Shown here piece after piece: positions 3,745 through 34,535 of a stretch of 64,000 nt of DNA. Numbering within the stretch: the first letter of the stretch is position 1; the number at the start of each line of letters is the position of its first letter. Source of the stretch: Patescibacteria group bacterium (GTDB taxonomy: Bacteria; Patescibacteriota; Patescibacteriia; JAQUQO01); the NCBI GenBank assembly GCA_028716045.1, contig JAQUQO010000001.1, forward strand, positions 528,897-592,896. The letters run 5' to 3'. Below the pieces are notes generated by a model. It did not search any database and was not told the DNA's origin. It was given only the letters and a program-made list of their open reading frames with translations. Position numbers and translations under genes: made by a program.

Positions 3745-3798
3745 TCCCCTTTCTCTCCCTTTGAAAAAGGGAGGTAAGGAGGGATTTAAAAAATCAAA

Positions 3799-3830
3799 AC
3801 ACCCCTGGGTAAAACTCGGGGTGTTTTTTT
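3799..3830 (+). terminator. rho-independent terminator (ACACCCC-loop-GGGGTGT + T7)
   Basis: 7-bp GC stem 3799-3824 then TTTTTTT. Confidence 0.7.
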
Positions 3831-3850
3831 ATTTGGGTTTTGATTTATAC

Positions 3851-3956
3851 AGAAACAATTCAGGCATTTGGTAGAGACGGGTTTAAAACCCGTCTCTACG
3901 GGGATACCGGGGGACGATAAAAGGATTGATGATTCGCATTATGTAGAGACCCCGCC
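3851..3956. repeat. composite repeat cassette copy 2
   Basis: Near-identical to 280-384; lies between convergent genes 703-3744 and 3971-7498. Confidence 0.8.
3871..3904. repeat. REP-like hairpin (identical to 300-332)
   Basis: GTAGAGACGGGTTTAAAACCCGTCTCTACGGGG. Confidence 0.8.
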
Positions 3957-10471: not shown

Positions 10472-12787
10472 TTAGGGGCAGTCTGTCTCTAAAATTACTC
10501 CGCGACTGCGAAGCTCCGCTATGTTCACACCTTGAGCCGCACAATCAATGGGATTGTATCTTATGTCCACCTCATCGTCATTATCAATACCAGAATTGCT
10601 CACGAGCGGCGATATATCGCTTATTCGATTATAATCAAGCCAAAGCGTTGTCAGTGCAGTAAGGTTTGACAATGGTGAGATGTCGCTTACCCCGTTGCCC
10701 CAAAGGTCAAGTATTGTCAGTGCAGTAAGGTTTGACAATGGCGAAATATCGCCTACTTGGTTGACCCTAAGGTAAAGCGTTGTCAGCGCAGTGAGGGTTG
10801 ATAATGGTGAGATATCGCTTACCTCGTTGCCCCAAAGGTCAAGTATTGTCAGCGCAGTGAGGTTTGACAATGGCGAGATGTCGCTTATTTGGTTGTTCTT
10901 AAGGTCAAGATCTGTCAGCGCAGTGAGGTTTGACAATGGTGAGATGTCGCTTATTTGGTTGCCCCAAAGGTCAAGTATTGTCAGCGCAGTGAGGTTTGAC
11001 AATGGCGAAATATCGCCTACTTGGTTGACCCTAAGGTAAAGCATTGTCAGTGCAGTAAGGTTTGACAACGGCGAAATATTGCTTATCTGGTTGTCCCAAA
11101 GGTAAAGCATTGTCAGTGCAGTAAGGTTTGACAACGGCGAAATATCGCTTATTTGGTTGGACAGAAGATTAAGTGTTGTCAGCGCAGTGAGGTTTGACAA
11201 TGGCGAGATGTCGCTTATTTGGTTGTTCTTAAGGTCAAGATCTGTCAGCGCAGTAAGGTTTGACAACGGTGAGATGTCGCTTATTTGGTTGGACCAAAGG
11301 TTAAGCAATGTCAGTGCAGTAAGGCATTCTATTCCTCCAAGGTATTGGATATCTTTATCTCCAGCATCAAGAAATGTCCGGTCTTTAACGTCTAAATAAT
11401 AAATGCCGCCAGAAAGCTTGCCAATAGCGTCCCGCACCGCCCGCTCAAGGTTTGGATCAGTAAAACTTATGACACCTTTACATTGGTCTGGGATATCCTG
11501 TTCGCAGGTATACGATTGAATGTTGCAGAACTCGCCCGCGGGACAATCCGCATCATCCGTGCACTCCACACAAATATTTCCTATACAGTAAGCATCTCCT
11601 CCTACGCAGGTACCGCAACTTCCTCCGCAACCATCATCGCCACACTCTTTACCGGAACAATCCGGTTCCAAGGGAGCAACACTGCAATATAACCCCGCCG
11701 GATTTGCTTCGAGCAAGCAAATTACCTCCCCCGTGTTTTGGCACTCTCCTTCGCCCGCAACACACTCTTCACCAATACTGGGAATATCATTGTCTATTTT
11801 GCCATCGCAATCATTGTCTTTGCCGTCGCAGAGTTCCTCGCCCGGCGGCAAAGCAACAGCGTCGCAGACGATTGACTTTTTGTCTAGCGAACAGATGTAT
11901 TCACCCCAAACGCGGCAATCGCTTAAGCCGTCGCTGCATTGGTCGCCCTTGCCGACTTCTTGCGCAGTCGGAAGGAAACCATTGTCCGCCACCTCATCGC
12001 AGTCATTATCTTTTTCATCACACAGCTCCTCGGCCCCCGGATAAACGGTTTTATCCTTGTCATCGCAATCGCCGTTTTTGACAGTAACCCCATCTTCGTC
12101 TTCATCGCGGTCAGAGTATTTGGCGTTGTATTCGTCAATGAACTTTTTGCCGGCGGTAAACTTTCCTCCCCACGCTTTGCCCTTAGAATCAAAGTCAACG
12201 TCTTCGCCATATTTAGGTCCATAACCGAAGTAAACCCAACTATAATTATCATACTCATCTTTAGGAGCGGGTCCTTTGCGAATACCAAAATGAAGGTGAG
12301 GTTCATTGTCGCCATTTTCATCATCTAAAACGCCATTACAATAAGCCACCCTACCATGAGGTGGCTTACCTCCGCTATGCCCCACATAACCAATAATTTC
12401 TCCTTTTTTGACAACCCCGCTTAACCTTGGTTTATATCCTTCGCGATTTGTCATATGGCCATATACTGAAGTTATTTTACCCCCATCCAGCAATGTATGC
12501 TCTACCACCACGACCATGCCATAACAAGTATGAGCTCCAGAGACAATACCCGTGATAATTTTCCCATTGCCAATTGCTCTCACGGGAGTTAAGGGTGATC
12601 TTTTGTCATCTTCGCCCAAATGTCGAGGCCAGCAACATCCAAAAACACGACCAAAGAATGAACCAGGATCATAGTTCGATAAAGGATATCCCAAACTGTC
12701 TGTTATTTCCGGTTCTTCAGAATAAGTATTTTTGGTATAACCGTAAACAGCAAAAAAAACAATTCCAATCAATATCAACCTTTTCAT
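10472..12787 (-). CDS. secreted multidomain protein: M23 peptidase domain + MopE-like Cys-rich modules + ~11 internalin-like 22-aa leucine-rich repeats
   Basis: Signal peptide. M23 motifs (GHM..., GHSGG, PHLHFGIR). CDxKDNDCDE/CDGKDNDCDG motifs. Tandem LTALTxLxLxxNQISDISPLSNL repeats (periodic DNA 10640-11340). Confidence 0.85.
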   Translation of the reverse strand: MKRLILIGIVFFAVYGYTKNTYSEEPEITDSLGYPLSNYDPGSFFGRVFGCCWPRHLGEDDKRSPLTPVRAIGNGKIITGIVSGAHTCYGMVVVVEHTLLDGGKITSVYGHMTNREGYKPRLSGVVKKGEIIGYVGHSGGKPPHGRVAYCNGVLDDENGDNEPHLHFGIRKGPAPKDEYDNYSWVYFGYGPKYGEDVDFDSKGKAWGGKFTAGKKFIDEYNAKYSDRDEDEDGVTVKNGDCDDKDKTVYPGAEELCDEKDNDCDEVADNGFLPTAQEVGKGDQCSDGLSDCRVWGEYICSLDKKSIVCDAVALPPGEELCDGKDNDCDGKIDNDIPSIGEECVAGEGECQNTGEVICLLEANPAGLYCSVAPLEPDCSGKECGDDGCGGSCGTCVGGDAYCIGNICVECTDDADCPAGEFCNIQSYTCEQDIPDQCKGVISFTDPNLERAVRDAIGKLSGGIYYLDVKDRTFLDAGDKDIQYLGGIECLTALTLLNLWSNQISDISPLSNLTALTDLDLKNNQISDISPLSNLTALTTLNLLSNQISDISPLSNLTALTMLYLWDNQISNISPLSNLTALTMLYLRVNQVGDISPLSNLTALTILDLWGNQISDISPLSNLTALTDLDLKNNQISDISPLSNLTALTILDLWGNEVSDISPLSTLTALTTLYLRVNQVGDISPLSNLTALTILDLWGNGVSDISPLSNLTALTTLWLDYNRISDISPLVSNSGIDNDDEVDIRYNPIDCAAQGVNIAELRSRGVILETDCP

Positions 12788-13585: not shown

Positions 13586-13614
13586 TTGACAAAATCATCA
13601 AAATTTGCTATAAT
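13586..13614 (+). promoter_or_regulatory. consensus promoter TTGACA-17-TGcTATAAT (extended -10)
   Basis: TTGACA 13586-13591; TATAAT 13609-13614; AGGAGG RBS 13649-13654 before ATG 13659. Confidence 0.6.
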
Positions 13615-13658
13615 TTAAAATTAAGCTAATGAATTAACAACCAACAAAGGAGGAAAAA

Positions 13659-13943
13659 ATGGAGATAATTAACTGCCCTTATTGTAAAGTAGAGTTGGGC
13701 GTTGAAGTGGGTAACGAGATAAAAATTTATCACTGCCCCTGTTGCGATACCGTGTTCTTTATATCAAAATCTCTTCTTGAAAAATCCCCCATGGAACAAC
13801 TGCTCCCTAAATATCCTCTAGAGCTTACCATGCCCTTTTCAGAACTTCCTACTGTTGAAATCTCAAAAAAAATAAGCACACTTTTTGAAAAGGTAATGGC
13901 TAAAGAGAACAAAAAGGGGGGCTTTGAGCCAAAACTAAAATAG
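13659..13943 (+). CDS. small zinc-ribbon protein (CPYC...CPCC), 94 aa
   Basis: CxxC-x17-CxxC; strong promoter and RBS. Confidence 0.6.
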   Translation: MEIINCPYCKVELGVEVGNEIKIYHCPCCDTVFFISKSLLEKSPMEQLLPKYPLELTMPFSELPTVEISKKISTLFEKVMAKENKKGGFEPKLK

Positions 13944-26695: not shown

Positions 26696-27271
26696 TTACC
26701 CCCTCCTGATTTTGATATCGTATAAAATTTCCTCAATCTTTTTTAAATTGTGCTTTGCCTGGTCGTATTTGACGCGCAAGTAACTCGTCAGATTCATTTG
26801 AATAAGTTCGGCCATAATTTCTTCCAGCACATCCTTCGCCTCCTCCGCCGCTTTGTAATTTCCCTTGTTGGCCTGGTTAATCGCCCGCCGGACAATCTCG
26901 CCCGTCAGGTCGCAAACCCCGCCGATATAGGAATCAAAATTAATCTCCATTTCTTTTATTTCACCAATTTTCCCCTTTTCCAAAAACATGCAAAATAATT
27001 TTGCTTCCACATATTCTTCCACCGCCGCGCGATACGACCCTTCACTATTTAAAATTTCCTGATTTTTTATTTTCTTTTTCAGGTCGGCAAAAATGGCCTC
27101 CACTTCTCCGAGCGTCTTTTTGGCTTCCGCTAAATTCTCCCGATGAAGAGAAAAAATCGCCTGTTTGGATTTATGTAAGGCGTCTCCCGTATATCTAATA
27201 ATCTGCCGGCGATAACCGACGTATTCCAGAAAATCTTTTCTAAGCTGCGCGAAAAACTTTTTGTTAATCAT
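26696..27271 (-). CDS. helical protein, possibly translin-like (191 aa)
   Basis: YIGGVCDLTGEIVRRA resembles translin-family core; low confidence. Confidence 0.35.
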   Translation of the reverse strand: MINKKFFAQLRKDFLEYVGYRRQIIRYTGDALHKSKQAIFSLHRENLAEAKKTLGEVEAIFADLKKKIKNQEILNSEGSYRAAVEEYVEAKLFCMFLEKGKIGEIKEMEINFDSYIGGVCDLTGEIVRRAINQANKGNYKAAEEAKDVLEEIMAELIQMNLTSYLRVKYDQAKHNLKKIEEILYDIKIRRG

Positions 27272-27415
27272 TTATTTTTGAGCCGGCTGTAAGCGGCTTT
27301 TAAGTTCTTTGATTAATTTGTCTTTTTCTTCTTCGCTCACAGCTATTCTCCTTATCCGCGCCTTCTCCCTCCTTAAATACTTCTTGCCGCCACGACTTAA
27401 TTTAAACTGTTCCAT
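27272..27415 (-). CDS. 47-aa basic small protein, stop codon directly abutting ATG of downstream gene
   Basis: MEQFKLSRGGKKYLRREKARIRR...; ...AAATAA-ATG junction. Confidence 0.35.
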   Translation of the reverse strand: MEQFKLSRGGKKYLRREKARIRRIAVSEEEKDKLIKELKSRLQPAQK

Positions 27416-27424
27416 ATTGAAAAT

Positions 27425-30109
27425 CTATTTTTTGTAAAGTCCTCTCCTGAGAAAAAAACTTTTGGTTAATTCTATCGCGAATAATTCCATTATACCAAGG
27501 CCGAGTAAAAATGTCCAGTCCAAACCGTCTAAAGGCATAGTGCGCAACAATAATTGTAATGGTTTCCAATAAACAGACAAAACCAGCGTCATCAAGCTGA
27601 ATAAAATGGAAAGATTGAGGATATTATTGGAAAAAAGATTGTTGCCCCAAAACGGCCGGCGGAAACTGCGGCAGGCCTGAATGTAAAACAGGGAATCAAT
27701 TGACAGCGCCGCAAAAAGAAAAGTGCGGATATGGTCCAGAGTGTATTCTTTGCCTAAAAAATAAAAAAACAAACCGAAAAGTACCAGGTCAGTAAAAATA
27801 CCGATGATAAAAATAAGGGCCTTCATTTCCGCGTCCATAATCGGCGCTTTTTTAGGATACGGTTTTTCTCGCATTACTTCTTTCTCGCTTGATTCAAAAG
27901 CCAGCGCGAAAGTGGGGAAACCGTCAGCGACCAAATTTACCCATAAAATTTGCGCCGGCAACAACGGCAAAGGCAAACCCAAAAGCAAACTGCCGCCAAT
28001 CAATATTATTTCCGTAAAACTGTCGGACATCAAATAAACAACGACTTTTTTTATATTGTCAAAAATGGCTCTCCCCTGTTCCACTGCCTTCACGATAGTC
28101 CTGAAATTATTATCTAATAAAACTAAATCCGCCGTTTCTTTGGTGATATCACTGCCCGACCCCACCGCCACTCCAATATCCGCCGATTTTATCGCCGGAG
28201 CGTCGTTGACGCCGTCGCCGGTCATAGCCACCACTTCTCCCTGTGATTGTAGGGCATCAACAATACGAATTTTATGTTTAGGAGTGACACGGGCAAAAAT
28301 ATAAATAGATTTTATTTTTTTACGCAGCTCCGCGTCACTCATTTGTTCAAGCTCCGGACCGTCTATAATATTCTCCGCTCTAACTTTCAGTCCCGCTTCT
28401 TCGGCAATGGCTTTGGCGGTTAAACGATGGTCGCCGGTTACCACTATAGTCCTGATGCCGGCCATTCGGGTAATTCTTAGTGTTTCGGGGACTTCTTTTC
28501 TAAGGGGGTCTTTAAGACCGATAAACCCGACTAAAACAATTTCTTGCACATCGTTTTCCGAAATTATTTTCACGTCTTTGCTTAATTCCTTATAACCAAC
28601 CGCCAAAAGTCGTAAGCCCCGGCTGGTCAATTTTTCATAATTATTTTTTAAAATTTTAAAACTTTGAAGGGTTAATCTTTCTTTTCTGCCATCAATTTGT
28701 AGAAATTCCGCCCGCTCCAAAACTTTCTCCGGAGCGCCCTTAATATAAAGCCAGTGGTGATGGCCGCCATCATGCAGAGTCACCATATATTTCTTTTCGG
28801 AATCAAAAGCAATTTCGTCCAGCCGTGGATTATTTTTTTCTAAATCTCTCTTATTAAGACCCGCCTCCACAGCGGCTAACAGCAAAGCGCTTTCCGTGGG
28901 GTCTCCAGAAATAACCCAATCGTCCAAAACGGCTTCGGGATTTTCAATAATGGCATTATTGCAAGCCAACCCGATATTTAGAGCAAAGATATGCGCGGCG
29001 CTATCTTTTATTGACTGCCAATCAAGCCCTTCCGTTTTTAGCCTGCCGCCAAGATAATCATTTAAAAGTTCTTTGCCGGTAAAAATTTCCGTTACCCCCA
29101 TTTTCCCCTCCGTCAGAGTCCCCGTCTTATCAGTACAAATAACCGTGGTGCTCCCCAAGGTTTCCGCCGCCAGTAAATTTCTGACTAAAGACCCTCGTTT
29201 GGAAATTCTTTGCATGCCAATAGCCAAGATTACCGTCACTGCCACAGCCAGACCTTCGGGCATAGCCGAAACGGCAATGGCCACTGCCATAGTAAACATT
29301 TCAAAAAATGACTTGCCAGCAAATGTTCCTAAAATTAAAATGAGAAAACAAATAACCCCCACCGCGCCGCCCATCCACTTGCTTAGTTTGAGAAGCCGCA
29401 ACTGCAACGGAGTTTTATCTTCCGGCGTTTCCCTGATTAAATAAGCCGTTTCCCCCAAAAAAGTGTCGGCGCCAATTTCTGTGACTACCGCCCGCGCCAT
29501 CCCCCGGGTTATCATCGTTCCCATAAAAACCATATTTTCACGGTCAGCCACAGCCAAATCACCGCTTAAAGTCCTGCTTGTCTTATCAACCGGCAAAGAT
29601 TCGCCGGTTAAACTGGCTTCATCAACTTGAAAATCCTTCAATTCTAGTATACGACCGTCAGCTGGTACCCGATCACCCGCTTTAAGAAAAACAATGTCCC
29701 CCGGCACAAGCTCTCCCACTTTAATCTGATGCTCCCAACCATTTCTTATCACCTTCACCCTGTATTCAATCAATTTTTTTAGATTAGTAAGGGCCCGGCT
29801 GGCCTTATTCTCCTCTATAAATCCGACGATGGTATTCACGCCAACGGTTAAAAGTATCACCGCCATATCAACGAACTTTTGGAGGGTTAAACTAATCGCC
29901 GCGGCAAGCAATAAAATATAAATCAAAGGATTTTTAAATTGCGAAAGAAAAATTTGCAAACTTGTTAATTTTTTTTCTTTGGGCAATTCGTTTTTGCCGA
30001 ATTTTTTTTGGCGCGCTAAGACCTCGACGACAGTCAAGCCCTTGGTTGAAGTTTTTAAATCTTTTAAAACTTGCTCAAGCGGCAAATTATGCCAATTTTT
30101 TCTAGTCAT
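27425..30109 (-). CDS. P-type cation-transporting ATPase (type II, Ca2+/Mg2+-like)
   Basis: DKTGTLT phosphorylation motif, TGDGVNDAPA, 10 TMs, 894 aa. Confidence 0.85.
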   Translation of the reverse strand: MTRKNWHNLPLEQVLKDLKTSTKGLTVVEVLARQKKFGKNELPKEKKLTSLQIFLSQFKNPLIYILLLAAAISLTLQKFVDMAVILLTVGVNTIVGFIEENKASRALTNLKKLIEYRVKVIRNGWEHQIKVGELVPGDIVFLKAGDRVPADGRILELKDFQVDEASLTGESLPVDKTSRTLSGDLAVADRENMVFMGTMITRGMARAVVTEIGADTFLGETAYLIRETPEDKTPLQLRLLKLSKWMGGAVGVICFLILILGTFAGKSFFEMFTMAVAIAVSAMPEGLAVAVTVILAIGMQRISKRGSLVRNLLAAETLGSTTVICTDKTGTLTEGKMGVTEIFTGKELLNDYLGGRLKTEGLDWQSIKDSAAHIFALNIGLACNNAIIENPEAVLDDWVISGDPTESALLLAAVEAGLNKRDLEKNNPRLDEIAFDSEKKYMVTLHDGGHHHWLYIKGAPEKVLERAEFLQIDGRKERLTLQSFKILKNNYEKLTSRGLRLLAVGYKELSKDVKIISENDVQEIVLVGFIGLKDPLRKEVPETLRITRMAGIRTIVVTGDHRLTAKAIAEEAGLKVRAENIIDGPELEQMSDAELRKKIKSIYIFARVTPKHKIRIVDALQSQGEVVAMTGDGVNDAPAIKSADIGVAVGSGSDITKETADLVLLDNNFRTIVKAVEQGRAIFDNIKKVVVYLMSDSFTEIILIGGSLLLGLPLPLLPAQILWVNLVADGFPTFALAFESSEKEVMREKPYPKKAPIMDAEMKALIFIIGIFTDLVLFGLFFYFLGKEYTLDHIRTFLFAALSIDSLFYIQACRSFRRPFWGNNLFSNNILNLSILFSLMTLVLSVYWKPLQLLLRTMPLDGLDWTFLLGLGIMELFAIELTKSFFLRRGLYKK

Positions 30110-30115
30110 AACAAA

Positions 30116-31000
30116 TTAAAAAATGAAGAAAGAGATAAAGAACCCGGCAATTCCCAAAAGAGCAATCGGCGGGAGAGCCGGAATGGGGGTTGGTTTTTGC
30201 GGACGGACAAAAATAAAATGAGTTATAATTACTCCGACAAACGAAAAAAGAGAAACTATCAAGGCGTTTAAAATGTTAAAGTTAGCCGCGGCCGCCGCCA
30301 AAATTAAAGGTAGGGCAAAATCTCCCCCGCCCATAATCACAAAATCTTGCCCGACCTTAATCTCCGACAGGTCGGCTTTCCATTTTAATATTTTCTCGGG
30401 AATGATAAGGGCGATAATGACTCCGCGTTCCATCAACCCTTTGGCCATAGCCACCATATGCTTAGTTCCGTAAACAGCCACTACGTCATAAACGGATAAA
30501 ATAAACAAAATGAGAACGGCTGTCCAGGGGTTAAGGGAATTGCCGAAACTGCCGCCAATCCCCGACAAGACCAAAACCATAATTAAATTATGAAGCCAAA
30601 TTTTCTGATAAAATTTCCTGATCACCAAAAGTAGAATGGCTGCCATAACCGAAAGGAAATTATTGAGCCAAAAGCTTAAAACAATTTCTAAACCGCCCCA
30701 AAGAGCTAAAACATAAAAAAACATTAAAATTCTTTTCCCTCCCCTGAACTTTAAAAGAAACAAGATTGCCAACGTGGCCAGCAAAAAATAGATTAACGCC
30801 CCCGACCAACTTAATTCTTCCACCGCGACGGTGCCGGCAACTGTCATTAAATTCAAACGCCAGGAAAAATAGATGCCTAAAGAAAAAACTAATAAAAACA
30901 ATAATAGCTCTTCCGCGAGCAACACAATTTTATATTTTATTAAAAAATCCCTCAATTTGCCCATGCCTAAATAAAAATGATTATTCTTTAAGTTTACCAT
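30116..31000 (-). CDS. polytopic membrane protein, possible presenilin/signal-peptide-peptidase-like aspartyl protease
   Basis: YD (SVYDVVAV) and GxGD-like (MGGGDFALP) motifs in adjacent TMs; tentative. Confidence 0.4.
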   Translation of the reverse strand: MVNLKNNHFYLGMGKLRDFLIKYKIVLLAEELLLFLLVFSLGIYFSWRLNLMTVAGTVAVEELSWSGALIYFLLATLAILFLLKFRGGKRILMFFYVLALWGGLEIVLSFWLNNFLSVMAAILLLVIRKFYQKIWLHNLIMVLVLSGIGGSFGNSLNPWTAVLILFILSVYDVVAVYGTKHMVAMAKGLMERGVIIALIIPEKILKWKADLSEIKVGQDFVIMGGGDFALPLILAAAAANFNILNALIVSLFSFVGVIITHFIFVRPQKPTPIPALPPIALLGIAGFFISFFIF

Positions 31001-31126
31001 AAAAACAACTTGACCCCGAAATTGTCCCCGTTTGGACGGGGACGCAACGGGGCAGGACGAGGATTTTTGAGTAACTTAAAATAATCAGCACACTCCTCCG
31101 GTAAGCGCTATGGCGCCTCAAAAAAC

Positions 31127-31155
31127 TTGACAAAAATGCCCTAAAATGCTATAAT
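31127..31155 (+). promoter_or_regulatory. consensus promoter TTGACA-17-TATAAT
   Basis: TTGACA 31127-31132; TATAAT 31150-31155. Confidence 0.6.
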
Positions 31156-31181
31156 AAACAAGTAAATAATAATACAAAATT

Positions 31182-31253
31182 ATGTACTGCGAACCATGCC
31201 CAGATTGCGGCAAAGATCCTTGCGAATGCGAGGAATGTGGCTGCAAAAAATAA
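31182..31253 (+). CDS. 23-aa cysteine-rich peptide MYCEPCPDCGKDPCECEECGCKK (8 Cys; metallothionein-like)
   Basis: ORF sits exactly between the consensus promoter and a strong terminator. No SD; short leader. Confidence 0.5.
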   Translation: MYCEPCPDCGKDPCECEECGCKK

Positions 31254-31263
31254 TATATCTAAA

Positions 31264-31292
31264 ACAGTCCCGAACACTCGGGACTGTTTTTT
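31264..31292 (+). terminator. rho-independent terminator (ACAGTCCCGA-ACA-CTCGGGACTGT + T5)
   Basis: 10-bp stem, T-run. Confidence 0.75.
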
Positions 31293-31310
31293 ATTACAAA
31301 AAATATGCTC

Positions 31311-32369
31311 TTAAATTATTCTGATTATTTCTTCGCTAATCTTCTCCGCCGCGTTAGTGGGGATAATTTTTTTTATATTCTCACTTAAACTCTCCAGCCC
31401 CTTTTTGTCTTGAAGCAGTTCTCTAATTTGAGATACAAAACTGGAAACCCCCAAACCGTCTTGCTCTAATAAAATCGCCCCTCCGTTAGCGGAAAAAACT
31501 TTAGCATTGGCTTCTTGATGGGAGTCAGGTATGGGGATAATCACGGCCGGTTTGCCCAAGCGGGATAACTCGGTCAGGGTTCCCATACCCGCCCGCGTGA
31601 CCACTAAGTCGGCAACGACGTAGGCCTCAGCCATTTCGCCGGTTAAAAATTCGTAGGCGTGATAATTTTCAAACTCTCCGGCTTGGATTCTCTTGCCTTT
31701 GCCGGTGAGATGGATAACCTGACAAAATTTAATTAATTCCGGGAGCGCTTCCAGAACCAAGTGATTAACCGCCAGCGCGCCGGTACCGCCGCCCAAAATC
31801 AGAAGCGTGGGCAAATCGCTTTTCAGACCGAAAAAATGTACTCCTCTGTTTCTATCGCCCTGTAAAATTTCCTCCCTCACTGGATTACCCACCACCACCG
31901 TTTTTTTCTGCTTAAACTTTTCCGCCGATTGCGGCAGGGCTAAGGTAATTTTTTTGGCAACCGGAGACATTAATTTATTGGCTAACCCCGGGATAACATC
32001 TTGCTGATGGATTAAAGAAGGTACGCCTAAAAACCATCCCGCCCAAACCACCGGCACGGAAACAAAACCGCCGGCCGATAAAATTACCCCCGGCTTTTCG
32101 CGGGAGATTATCTCAAGCGATTCAAAAAATCCCGCAAAAATAAAAAAAATGTCCGCGATATTTTGTAAACTAAAATAGCGGCGCCATTTACCGCAATCAA
32201 TGGTTAAAAATTTTACATTTTCTTTCAAAATAAGCTCTTTCTCGGGTCCATGTTTCGTGCCAATCCAAATAAATTCCGACTGGGGAAATTTTTCTCTAAA
32301 TTTTTTTACTACGGCCAAAAGCGGAGTCGCCGAACCGGCCGTCCCCCCTCCGGTTAACATTATTTTCAT
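31311..32369 (-). CDS. murG: UDP-GlcNAc:MurNAc-pentapeptide-PP-undecaprenol GlcNAc transferase MurG
   Basis: MLTGGGTAGSATP N-term, GT28 fold, 352 aa. Confidence 0.85.
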   Translation of the reverse strand: MKIMLTGGGTAGSATPLLAVVKKFREKFPQSEFIWIGTKHGPEKELILKENVKFLTIDCGKWRRYFSLQNIADIFFIFAGFFESLEIISREKPGVILSAGGFVSVPVVWAGWFLGVPSLIHQQDVIPGLANKLMSPVAKKITLALPQSAEKFKQKKTVVVGNPVREEILQGDRNRGVHFFGLKSDLPTLLILGGGTGALAVNHLVLEALPELIKFCQVIHLTGKGKRIQAGEFENYHAYEFLTGEMAEAYVVADLVVTRAGMGTLTELSRLGKPAVIIPIPDSHQEANAKVFSANGGAILLEQDGLGVSSFVSQIRELLQDKKGLESLSENIKKIIPTNAAEKISEEIIRII

Positions 32370-33686: not shown

Positions 33687-34535
33687 CTATAAAACTATTA
33701 AGAAACGGAAACCAACGTGACCGTAATGGTCGTCGTGCCAACGCTCGCGCACCCCCGCCAGCCCCCCATCATCACAATCACCTGTTATGAGATGGTGCTC
33801 CGAGGAAATATTTGCACACCACTCCCAATACTCAGGTTTGCCCAGGTCAGGCAACTGCTCCCGATGGTTCTCTCGTAACCAGTTAAACATATTGCCAAGA
33901 AAATTCCACTCTTCGACCGTTGGCAAGCATACATGATTTTTCGGAAAGCCAGTGATTTTGGCGGCCCTGGCGAGAAGACCAGTGTCATTATAAAAATCAC
34001 TATCATATTCCACAGAGAAACGGCTTTTGAGCTTAAGCTTTACTCTAAGGAGATCATTTGAGTAATCATCTCGATCGATGGTTTCAATTGCCACCCATCG
34101 TCCCAAGAGCGGCTTGCGCTCAGTATCATCTGCGTCGAGGCCACGGTTTCCCCATTCGGGTTTTATAAAATCCGAGGGGTATTCATCCTCACTGACTGCT
34201 GGGATAAAGAAAGATCGGAAACCGAACTTGACCAGTGACTTCATCTGCTGCGGGGTGAGTTTAGGCACCAGCGGAACCTTACAAGAGATTTCTATTTCAT
34301 TGTAAACGTCCTGCATCCAAACCCGAAGGTTGTCCCTGGGGACGACGAGACCGAATGGTGTCTCGCGCCAACGCGTAGGGTCCTCGAGGAACGCGTTAAG
34401 ATCCTCAGAAAAAATCTGGCCTGCAGCCGCACGCTCAATAAGCTGTCTGATCTGTCCTGTTGTAATAGAATCCATCTTCTCCTCCTCGCCCATTGGCACA
34501 AGCCGCGGCAACTCCCTTGGAGTCGATGCGACCAT
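33687..34535 (-). CDS. GC-rich hypothetical protein; C-terminus weakly FGE/SUMF1-like (..EYWEWCANI...GHVGFRF)
   Basis: ~50% GC versus ~40% in neighbours. Own terminator and ~200-nt upstream region. Inserted between mraY and ftsW. Confidence 0.5.
   Translation of the reverse strand: MVASTPRELPRLVPMGEEEKMDSITTGQIRQLIERAAAGQIFSEDLNAFLEDPTRWRETPFGLVVPRDNLRVWMQDVYNEIEISCKVPLVPKLTPQQMKSLVKFGFRSFFIPAVSEDEYPSDFIKPEWGNRGLDADDTERKPLLGRWVAIETIDRDDYSNDLLRVKLKLKSRFSVEYDSDFYNDTGLLARAAKITGFPKNHVCLPTVEEWNFLGNMFNWLRENHREQLPDLGKPEYWEWCANISSEHHLITGDCDDGGLAGVRERWHDDHYGHVGFRFLIVL

Follow-up and report, generated by a model that had tools for sequence, protein, structure and literature searches.

A gene for a cysteine-rich microprotein of 23 residues was found in a 64,000-nucleotide stretch of DNA from a Patescibacteria group bacterium (assembly GCA_028716045.1, contig JAQUQO010000001.1, positions 528,897 to 592,896 of the forward strand), here called the window. 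The gene has its own promoter, leader and terminator. It is flanked by a presenilin/SPP-like membrane protease gene and by murG, which runs towards it from the opposite strand (Table 1). Six further orthologues were retrieved, and their codons point to selection on the encoded peptide. The most plausible reading of these sequences is that of a metal-binding cysteine peptide.

The transcription unit

A first-pass annotation of the window had described a stand-alone gene for a 23-residue peptide with eight cysteines, preceded by a TTGACA-17-TATAAT promoter and a 26-nucleotide leader lacking a Shine-Dalgarno sequence, and followed by a terminator with a 10-bp stem. Most of this description held. 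The promoter, TTGACA-17-TGnTATAAT, scores 12/12 in the promoter scan and has, in addition, an extended -10 element. Sites with at most one mismatch to TTGACA-N17-TATAAT occur nine times in the 64-kb window, against 0.46 expected, which indicates that the organism uses this consensus. Only two perfect (12/12) promoters are present, that of the microprotein being one of them, and its transcript likely starts near position 31162. The leader is as described. Its missing Shine-Dalgarno sequence is no argument against translation, since such sequences (GGAG/GAGG) are rare upstream of the long open reading frames (ORFs) of the window (5 of 32 with at least 250 codons). Most window genes have A/T-rich leaders, so initiation independent of a Shine-Dalgarno sequence is the norm here.

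The peptide length of 23 residues was confirmed, but the number of cysteines is seven (positions 3, 6, 9, 14, 16, 19 and 21). When the window was shuffled 200 times at the dinucleotide level, an ORF of 20-40 residues with at least seven cysteines arose in only two of the shuffled sequences. The decisive argument against chance, however, is that other genomes have conserved the gene (see below). The 10-bp stem (31264-31273 / 31278-31287) is the core of a 13-bp stem (31261-31273 / 31278-31290), with the loop ACAC and a T-run to 31292. By folding, this hairpin reaches -20 kcal/mol (z = -7.3). A simple consensus terminator scan did not list it, although it is very strong and clearly visible by folding, probably because the A/U extension of the stem consumes part of the T-run. 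Negatives of such a scan are untrustworthy for bidirectional terminators of the A-run/T-run type.

Table 1. Features of the microprotein locus in the window (positions are those of the window)
Feature	Position	Strand	Basis or remark
-35 hexamer TTGACA	31127..31132	+	promoter scan; 17-nt spacer to -10
Extended -10 element TGcTATAAT	31147..31155	+	hexamer TATAAT 31150-31155, TG in front
A-rich 5' region without Shine-Dalgarno sequence, 26 nt	31156..31181	+	sequence
Microprotein gene, 23 codons + TAA, encodes MYCEPCPDCGKDPCECEECGCKK	ATG 31182..TAA 31253	+	ORF translation and orthologues
Four-Cys core CPDCGKDPCEC, codons 6-16	31197..31229	+	C6, P7, C9, G10, P13, C14, C16 invariant
Second knuckle C-E-E-C-G and final Cys, codons 16-21	31227..31244	+	family motif C-x-x-C-G-C
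Intrinsic bidirectional terminator (A-run, 13-bp stem, T-run), common to convergent murG	31261..31292	.	folding
murG, convergent neighbour, outside the transcription unit	31311..32369	-	context
Presenilin/SPP-like membrane protease gene, divergent neighbour	30116..31000	-	PF06550 match

Orthologues and selection on the peptide

Among 5.8 billion proteins, identity to the window's MurG does not exceed 63-64%, even in its closest relatives. At locus L128, whose MurG is 64% identical, an orthologue of 23 residues, MSYEPCPTCGNDPCSCEGCGCGK, occupies the same position. Its unit consists of a TTGACA-17-TGcTATAAT promoter, a differing leader, an ATG...TAA frame and a terminator hairpin, the latter unrelated in sequence to that of the window. 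The other orthologues of 22-23 residues are those of L133 (MCGDKCPKCGNEPCTCDKCGCC, a 22-mer convergent with the 3' end of murG), L151 (MSGDKCPKCGNEPCTCDKCGCC, on a contig that stops before murG), L163 (MCGDKCPKCGNEPCTCEKCGCC), L164 (MIGPSCPDCGNDPCTCSSCGCGK) and L165/L166 (MFKPCPACGNEPCTCEDCGCGK), the last three adjoining murG. In the clade of L133, L163, L164 and L165/L166, MurG is only 43% identical to that of the window. All orthologues run convergently with murG, apart from that of L151, where the contig ends too early to show it. Furthermore, a 16-residue form, MRLDPCPGCGNEPCTC, adjoins murG in L170, and a divergent 29-residue form with its own TTGACA-17-TATACT promoter is present in L171, a locus nearer the window's lineage.

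L133 and L151 were recovered with a degenerate DNA pattern for CPxCGxxPCxCxxCGC, searched over the metagenome collection. This pattern matched 31 metagenome stretches, of which these two were genuine; the remaining matches, other than L145 (see below), were CGCPP tandem repeats or lay out of frame in long high-GC ORFs. A pattern of the cysteine skeleton only (7 x TGY) was uninformative, with more than 120 viral matches, mostly Cys-rich repeats. Searching plasmids with the peptide (tblastn) gave nothing significant, and a MurG-based scan of genome contigs retrieved only distant relatives (48-55% identity), all without the small gene.

Codon usage was compared in seven canonical sequences, from the window, L128, L133, L151, L163, L164 and L165/L166. 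Start, stop and length (22-23 codons) are kept in all of them, 11 residues are invariant (M1, C6, P7, C9, G10, P13, C14, C16, C19, G20 and C21), and position 12 holds either Asp or Glu in every member. Synonymous codon variation is seen at eight of the ten invariant residues other than Met. Variable columns are concentrated at third codon positions; the counts for the three positions are 9/9/19 of 22 overall, and within the core they are 4/4/13 of 16. The ratio of nonsynonymous to synonymous substitution rates (dN/dS, Nei-Gojobori) was 0.04-0.55 in the 20 of 21 pairs for which it was computable. In the remaining pair dS was saturated, and the nonsynonymous proportion pN (0.32) was far below its synonymous counterpart pS (0.77).

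The RNA level gave no comparable signal. The RNAalifold consensus of the ORF was weak (-8 kcal/mol), with 0 compensatory pairs, and the region had no Rfam match at the gathering threshold, the matches at E <= 10 being terminator-driven and far below that threshold. An internal mRNA hairpin was rejected as a feature, since it consists of TGC/GCA codons and lacks compensatory changes. With the frame kept, dN/dS well below 1 and no covariation, a non-coding RNA is not the better explanation. The first-pass annotation had named a loss of the frame or of the synonymous/nonsynonymous pattern among relatives, and evidence for a non-coding transcript, as grounds for giving up the gene; neither was encountered. 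Judged by its codons, the ORF is a real conserved coding gene under purifying selection.

The signals for expression are likewise found across the loci. A TTGACA-17-TATAAT/TATACT/TATTAT layout stands ahead of the small gene in the window, L128, L171 and L162, the locus of a 38-residue variant. In the L133 clade, the ORF begins 13-125 nucleotides behind tRNA-Lys(UUU). The distance is only 13-24 nucleotides in L133, L151 and L165, which leaves no space for a separate promoter and suggests that the ORF is co-transcribed with the tRNA in these three loci. In L151 and L163, this tRNA has a TTGACA-17-TATAAT promoter. A hairpin terminator follows directly after the stop codon at every orthologous locus, each of differing sequence, and the leaders resemble that of the window (aaacacaaacat or aaaaat ahead of ATG). 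The peptide is retained, although the sequences of leader and terminator have diverged freely around it. The microprotein is likely to be abundantly expressed.

The location between a membrane protein and murG, reported by the first-pass annotation, could be refined to a conserved arrangement, in which the small gene converges with murG at the 3' end of the latter; it was seen at 8 of 14 informative murG loci. Two of these eight, the window and L133, are unbiased cases, and looking beside murG led to the other six. L162 has unrelated genes as its downstream neighbours. Gene order is kept across distant Patescibacteria (window 26696-32369, L128, L129, L151, L163 and L170). One order is ftsW-murG, small ORF, SPP-like protease, P-type cation ATPase, an ORF of 48-53 residues and a translin-like gene; that of the other clade is murG, small ORF/tRNA-Lys, a protein of 350-485 residues and translin. 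The SPP-like protease (PF06550 in the window) is also present in L128 and L129. In L129, the closest relative without the small gene, a near-perfect inverted repeat of ~30 nucleotides (3780-3860) fills the spacer between murG and the SPP gene as a long bidirectional hairpin.

Other observations concern the surroundings of the gene. A GC-rich structured segment of 126 nucleotides (31001-31126) separates the SPP gene start from the microprotein promoter. Its minus-strand fold reaches -43.9 kcal/mol (z = -3.1); it is single copy in the window, has no Rfam match and is missing from the orthologous spacer of L128. GC-rich hairpin insertions of this type separate tRNA-Lys from the small ORF in L163 and L164. 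An ORF of ~262-282 residues without a Pfam match lies between mraY and ftsW in the window (33687-34535, - strand); it is not at that position in L128, and other genes replace it elsewhere. The other perfect TTGACA-17-TATAAT promoter of the window (13586-13943, + strand) drives a protein of 94 residues (13659-13943), in which four Cys form an N-terminal CPYC...CPCC motif. Its gene has a strong Shine-Dalgarno sequence, AAGGAGGA, unusual for this genome. Finally, an identical mini-ORF of 12 residues, MTMARCRLFGCS, is present at 10864-10902 and 11194-11232 (+ strand, 330 nucleotides apart), which points to a direct DNA repeat in that region.

The four-cysteine core and its closest known counterparts

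The family can be described by the motif M-x(3,4)-C-P-x-C-G-x-[DE]-P-C-x-C-x-x-C-G-C-x(1,2). Two CxxCG knuckles, C6PxC9G and C16xxC19G, are invariant in the seven canonical members, and C14 and C21 are extra. The peptide is acidic and hydrophilic, and lacks a hydrophobic core. Neither aromatic residues nor His occur in the conserved core; the peptides of the window, L128 and L165 each have one Tyr or Phe, in their variable N-terminus. With 23 residues and 7 Cys (30%) in C-x-C and C-x-x-C spacing, the window peptide has a size and cysteine content within the range of metallothioneins, which are of low molecular mass with roughly 15-30% Cys. The invariant Pro and Gly (CPxCG, CxxCG) look like structural zinc or rubredoxin knuckles and not like a floppy metallothionein.

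Database comparisons yielded very little. For the four members tested, 0 families matched in Pfam and NCBIfam at E <= 10. A profile search of the PDB returned only generic CPxCG zinc knuckles, the best being the Haloferax micro-protein HVO_2753 (6ydh; 15 residues matched, E = 0.002). The seven canonical peptides are all absent from a collection of ~15 billion predicted proteins, in which only the 29- and 38-residue variants occur, either nameless or "hypothetical". The family has gone unseen because gene callers normally skip ORFs so short. In the literature searched, no matching Cys-rich small protein was described in Patescibacteria, and the peptide strings gave no match. What is new is the sequence family, its size below that of described stand-alone two-knuckle proteins, the phylum, and the tRNA-linked or consensus-promoter expression. 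Its kind, a cysteine-rich metal-knuckle microprotein, is already known, and the corresponding metal-binding mechanism is plausible here.

The first four cysteines also occur by themselves. The core CPxCGN[DE]PCxC is present without the second knuckle in the 16-residue (L170) and 38-residue (L162; P0121/P0124) variants, which shows it to be the minimal conserved unit. The 38-residue variant reads MMESCPKCGNEPCTC, continues into an acidic tail, and is flanked by a TTGACA-17-TATTAT promoter and a terminator of its own. Searching with self-concatenated peptides as a profile found only P0121. A phmmer search with P0121 against 1.84 billion representatives gave one true relative (P0124) plus repeat-protein noise, and tblastn of the 38-residue variant against isolate phages nothing significant.

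In IMG/VR, the core pattern has 22 in-frame matches (L172-L193), compared with a rough chance estimate of ~0.1. The proteins carrying it include a prohead-protease/major-capsid fusion, tape measure proteins, phrog_727-type virion proteins and hyper-acidic proteins of 250 residues, for example in L172 (4954-6843, -), L174 (1299-4943, -), L173 (2137-4071, -) and L177 (4872-5624, +). The core always lies in charged linker regions of these large, unrelated proteins, and no Pfam model covers it there. An instance outside Patescibacteria and phages is L145 (1-90), the C-terminus of a high-GC metagenome protein ending in ...CPTCGNVPCSCP, i.e. ...YANGCPTCGNVPCSCP-stop, which carries only the 4-Cys core.

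The closest known systems are the haloarchaeal C(P)XCG zinc-finger micro-proteins (HVO_2753/DUF1610, PDB 6ydh; HVO_0758), likewise stand-alone, very small and built on two C(P)XCG knuckles. Metal binding is their expected organising principle (PMC11241148, PMC10716476). They have 40-70 residues, and none has fewer than 30 (PMC11241148), compared with 22-23 in the microprotein. The latter is bacterial, has its knuckles six residues apart and carries two further invariant cysteines. Its canonical members share the two motifs, whereas the 16- and 38-residue variants have one. The match to HVO_2753 is weak and limited to the knuckle, and neither homology to a described family such as DUF1610 nor a length of at least 30 residues with a linker was found.

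Fungal copper metallothioneins with seven Cys (Neurospora crassa / Agaricus bisporus) resemble the window peptide in cysteine number, in CxC/CxxC spacing and in the lack of a hydrophobic core, and seven-Cys members bind ~6 Cu(I) (PMC13107397). The cysteine spacing differs, though, and there is no sequence relationship; in the microprotein family, conservation extends to only six of the Cys, together with Pro and Gly that are invariant as in structural knuckles. The two kinds of peptide belong to the same size class. The likeness to SmtA that the first-pass annotation saw in the CEPC motif did not extend to the family, since the first Cys of this motif, Cys3, is Y, G or F in other members. Neither the SmtA/BmtA model of Pfam (Metallothio_Pro) nor an NCBIfam metallothionein model matched at E <= 10. 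SmtA, also a Cys-rich bacterial metal binder, is a protein of 56 residues with His ligands and a zinc-finger-like fold. Rubredoxin and desulforedoxin likewise use paired CxxCG knuckles as metal ligands, the rubredoxin fold having ~45-54 residues around an Fe(Cys)4 centre. The microprotein, with 22-23 residues, is at most half as long, lacks an aromatic core, has extra Cys and gave no match to the Pfam models at E <= 10.

Unannotated Cys-rich small ORFs are also known as mycobacterial polycysteine attenuators (bioRxiv 10.1101/834739). These are leaderless, have consecutive Cys codons and lie upstream of Cys-metabolism operons. The microprotein gene has a leader of ~20 nucleotides (26 from -10 to ATG), spaced Cys codons and conserved non-Cys residues. 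Moreover, no gene follows downstream on the same strand, the next gene being murG on the opposite strand.

Proposed function and alternatives

The reading we lean towards, as somewhat more probable than its negation, is a self-contained gene for a metal-nucleated cytoplasmic microprotein of 23 residues, serving as metal buffer, metal chaperone or adaptor. From the sequences, we infer translation in vivo and metal binding, as well as the metal identity, stoichiometry and cellular role proposed here. The consensus sigma-70-type promoter would fire ~20 nucleotides upstream of the ATG and give strong transcription. Translation would begin on the A-rich leader without a Shine-Dalgarno sequence, as in most genes of this organism, and the bidirectional hairpin would terminate both the microprotein and the convergent murG transcripts. 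As it has no hydrophobic core, the peptide cannot fold unaided and its fold would need ligands, an argument taken from zinc knuckles, rubredoxins and metallothioneins.

We propose that the peptide folds around metal ions held by the six invariant Cys thiolates. Two rubredoxin/zinc-ribbon-type knuckles would be joined by the invariant x-[DE]-P-C14-x turn, with C14 and C21 as further ligands. C6, C9, C14 and C16, which form the most conserved unit of 11 residues, probably make up one tetrathiolate site. C19 and C21 could extend it to a binuclear centre of the M2Cys6 or Cu4S6 type, or bridge two peptides. The likely role would be that of an abundant metal-loaded module, either a metal buffer/chaperone or a tiny zinc-knuckle adaptor. 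Most C(P)XCG micro-proteins do bind a metal, be it zinc or another, and AlphaFold2 is reported to be unable to predict the geometry of their metal sites (PMC11241148).

Several points weigh against a metal-binding microprotein. The C(P)XCG motif is no guarantee, as several Haloferax proteins that carry it are metal-free, and fewer than 30 residues have been argued to be too short for a stand-alone two-knuckle protein (PMC11241148). In the microprotein, the spacing between the knuckles is only six residues. The small gene is not consistently accompanied by a metal transporter or regulator, and the adjoining P-type ATPase has Cation_ATPase_N/C domains and no heavy-metal-associated domain. In addition, no more than about ten loci represent the family so far, and most of them were found beside murG, which biases the synteny count. 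The gene is also missing from L129, L167 and L001-L004, so it is either dispensable or sited elsewhere in those genomes.

The same knuckles could serve a different chemistry. Paired CxxCG with invariant Pro and Gly is the rubredoxin signature, Patescibacteria are mostly anaerobic fermenters, and a strong promoter and tRNA linkage fit an abundant housekeeping cofactor protein. All this could describe a mini-rubredoxin, in which the two knuckles hold one Fe(Cys)4 for one-electron transfer or redox buffering, without a role in binding Zn or Cu. We consider it unlikely, given the missing Pfam rubredoxin match, knuckles six residues apart instead of ~30, and the lack of an aromatic core. Furthermore, the 16- and 38-residue variants have no second knuckle, and no redox partner gene lies nearby. 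Disulfides are another fate for six Cys within 22 residues, which, together with Pro/Gly turns, also typify disulfide-rich toxins. A stand-alone gene with strong expression signals would suit an exported, disulfide-knotted peptide with three disulfides, used by these episymbionts as a signal, an adhesin modulator or a toxin towards hosts or competitors. This is improbable, as only five residues precede the first invariant Cys, with no signal peptide or leader, and no transporter or immunity gene recurs nearby. The acidic, hydrophilic character, the 4-Cys variants, and the presence of the same core within phage structural proteins (capsid-protease fusion, tape measure) speak against export as well.

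The first-pass annotation had also considered a precursor of a ribosomally synthesised and post-translationally modified peptide (RiPP), whose cysteines would become thioethers, thiazoles or thioamides. Such precursors are short and Cys-rich, and some of their enzymes are remotely encoded. We nevertheless rate a RiPP as a shade less probable than export. There is no leader region, and no radical-SAM, YcaO, lanthionine or MNIO maturase is present in the gene lists of the window, L128, L129, L162-L167, L170 and L171, let alone recurring beside the gene. No match to an NCBIfam precursor family was obtained (SCIFF/ranthipeptide being examples of such RiPPs), and the invariant Pro and Gly of the knuckles point to a folded final product. 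The translation of Cys codons might matter in itself, in a Cys-sensing leader or attenuator, or in the control of termination or of antisense read-through into murG. Cys-responsive attenuators among Cys-rich small ORFs are known (bioRxiv 10.1101/834739), the terminator comes right after the ORF, and the ORF faces murG. However, no co-oriented gene lies downstream in the window, L128, L133, L163 or L165, the Cys codons are not consecutive, and no alternative anti-terminator pairing is conserved. P7, G10, P13, G20 and the acidic position 12 are conserved like the Cys and would be needless for counting codons, all of which makes this explanation very improbable. Least probable is a non-coding small RNA, or an insulator made of promoter plus terminator, with an incidental ORF. 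The transcript is short, ends in a strong terminator, and as a whole unit folds with z = -6.5. This value comes from the terminator alone, and the codon-position pattern, the low dN/dS, the lack of ORF covariation and of an Rfam match, and a peptide kept beside diverging leaders and terminators argue against RNA. For the last three explanations, it is the missing leader region, the missing maturase or co-oriented downstream gene, and the codon evidence that disfavour them.

Beyond the metal-nucleated microprotein itself, a broader idea is possible, which we put forward tentatively and hold to be less probable than the former. The CPxCGN[DE]PCxC core may be an autonomous metal-nucleated mini-fold of ~11 residues, the smallest natural domain of its kind. 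It would exist free as a microprotein of 16-38 residues in Patescibacteria, where the CGC extension would yield the six-Cys, possibly binuclear form of 22-23 residues, and its transcription would reach levels like those of a tRNA. In phages, the core would have entered capsid, scaffold-linker and tape-measure proteins by repeated insertion. If so, no stand-alone metalloprotein family in bacteria would be smaller than the free form, which would also have some link to the end of the dcw/murG cell-wall cluster.

If the peptide binds metal, it would set a new lower size limit, under 30 residues, for a natural stand-alone metal-binding protein. Patescibacteria have minimal genomes, in which a microprotein that is both conserved and strongly expressed would hardly be kept without a use. 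It could be relevant to how these organisms, which lack most of the known systems, handle metals or redox. The recurrence of its core in phage capsid and tail proteins suggests, moreover, a portable structural staple of wider use.

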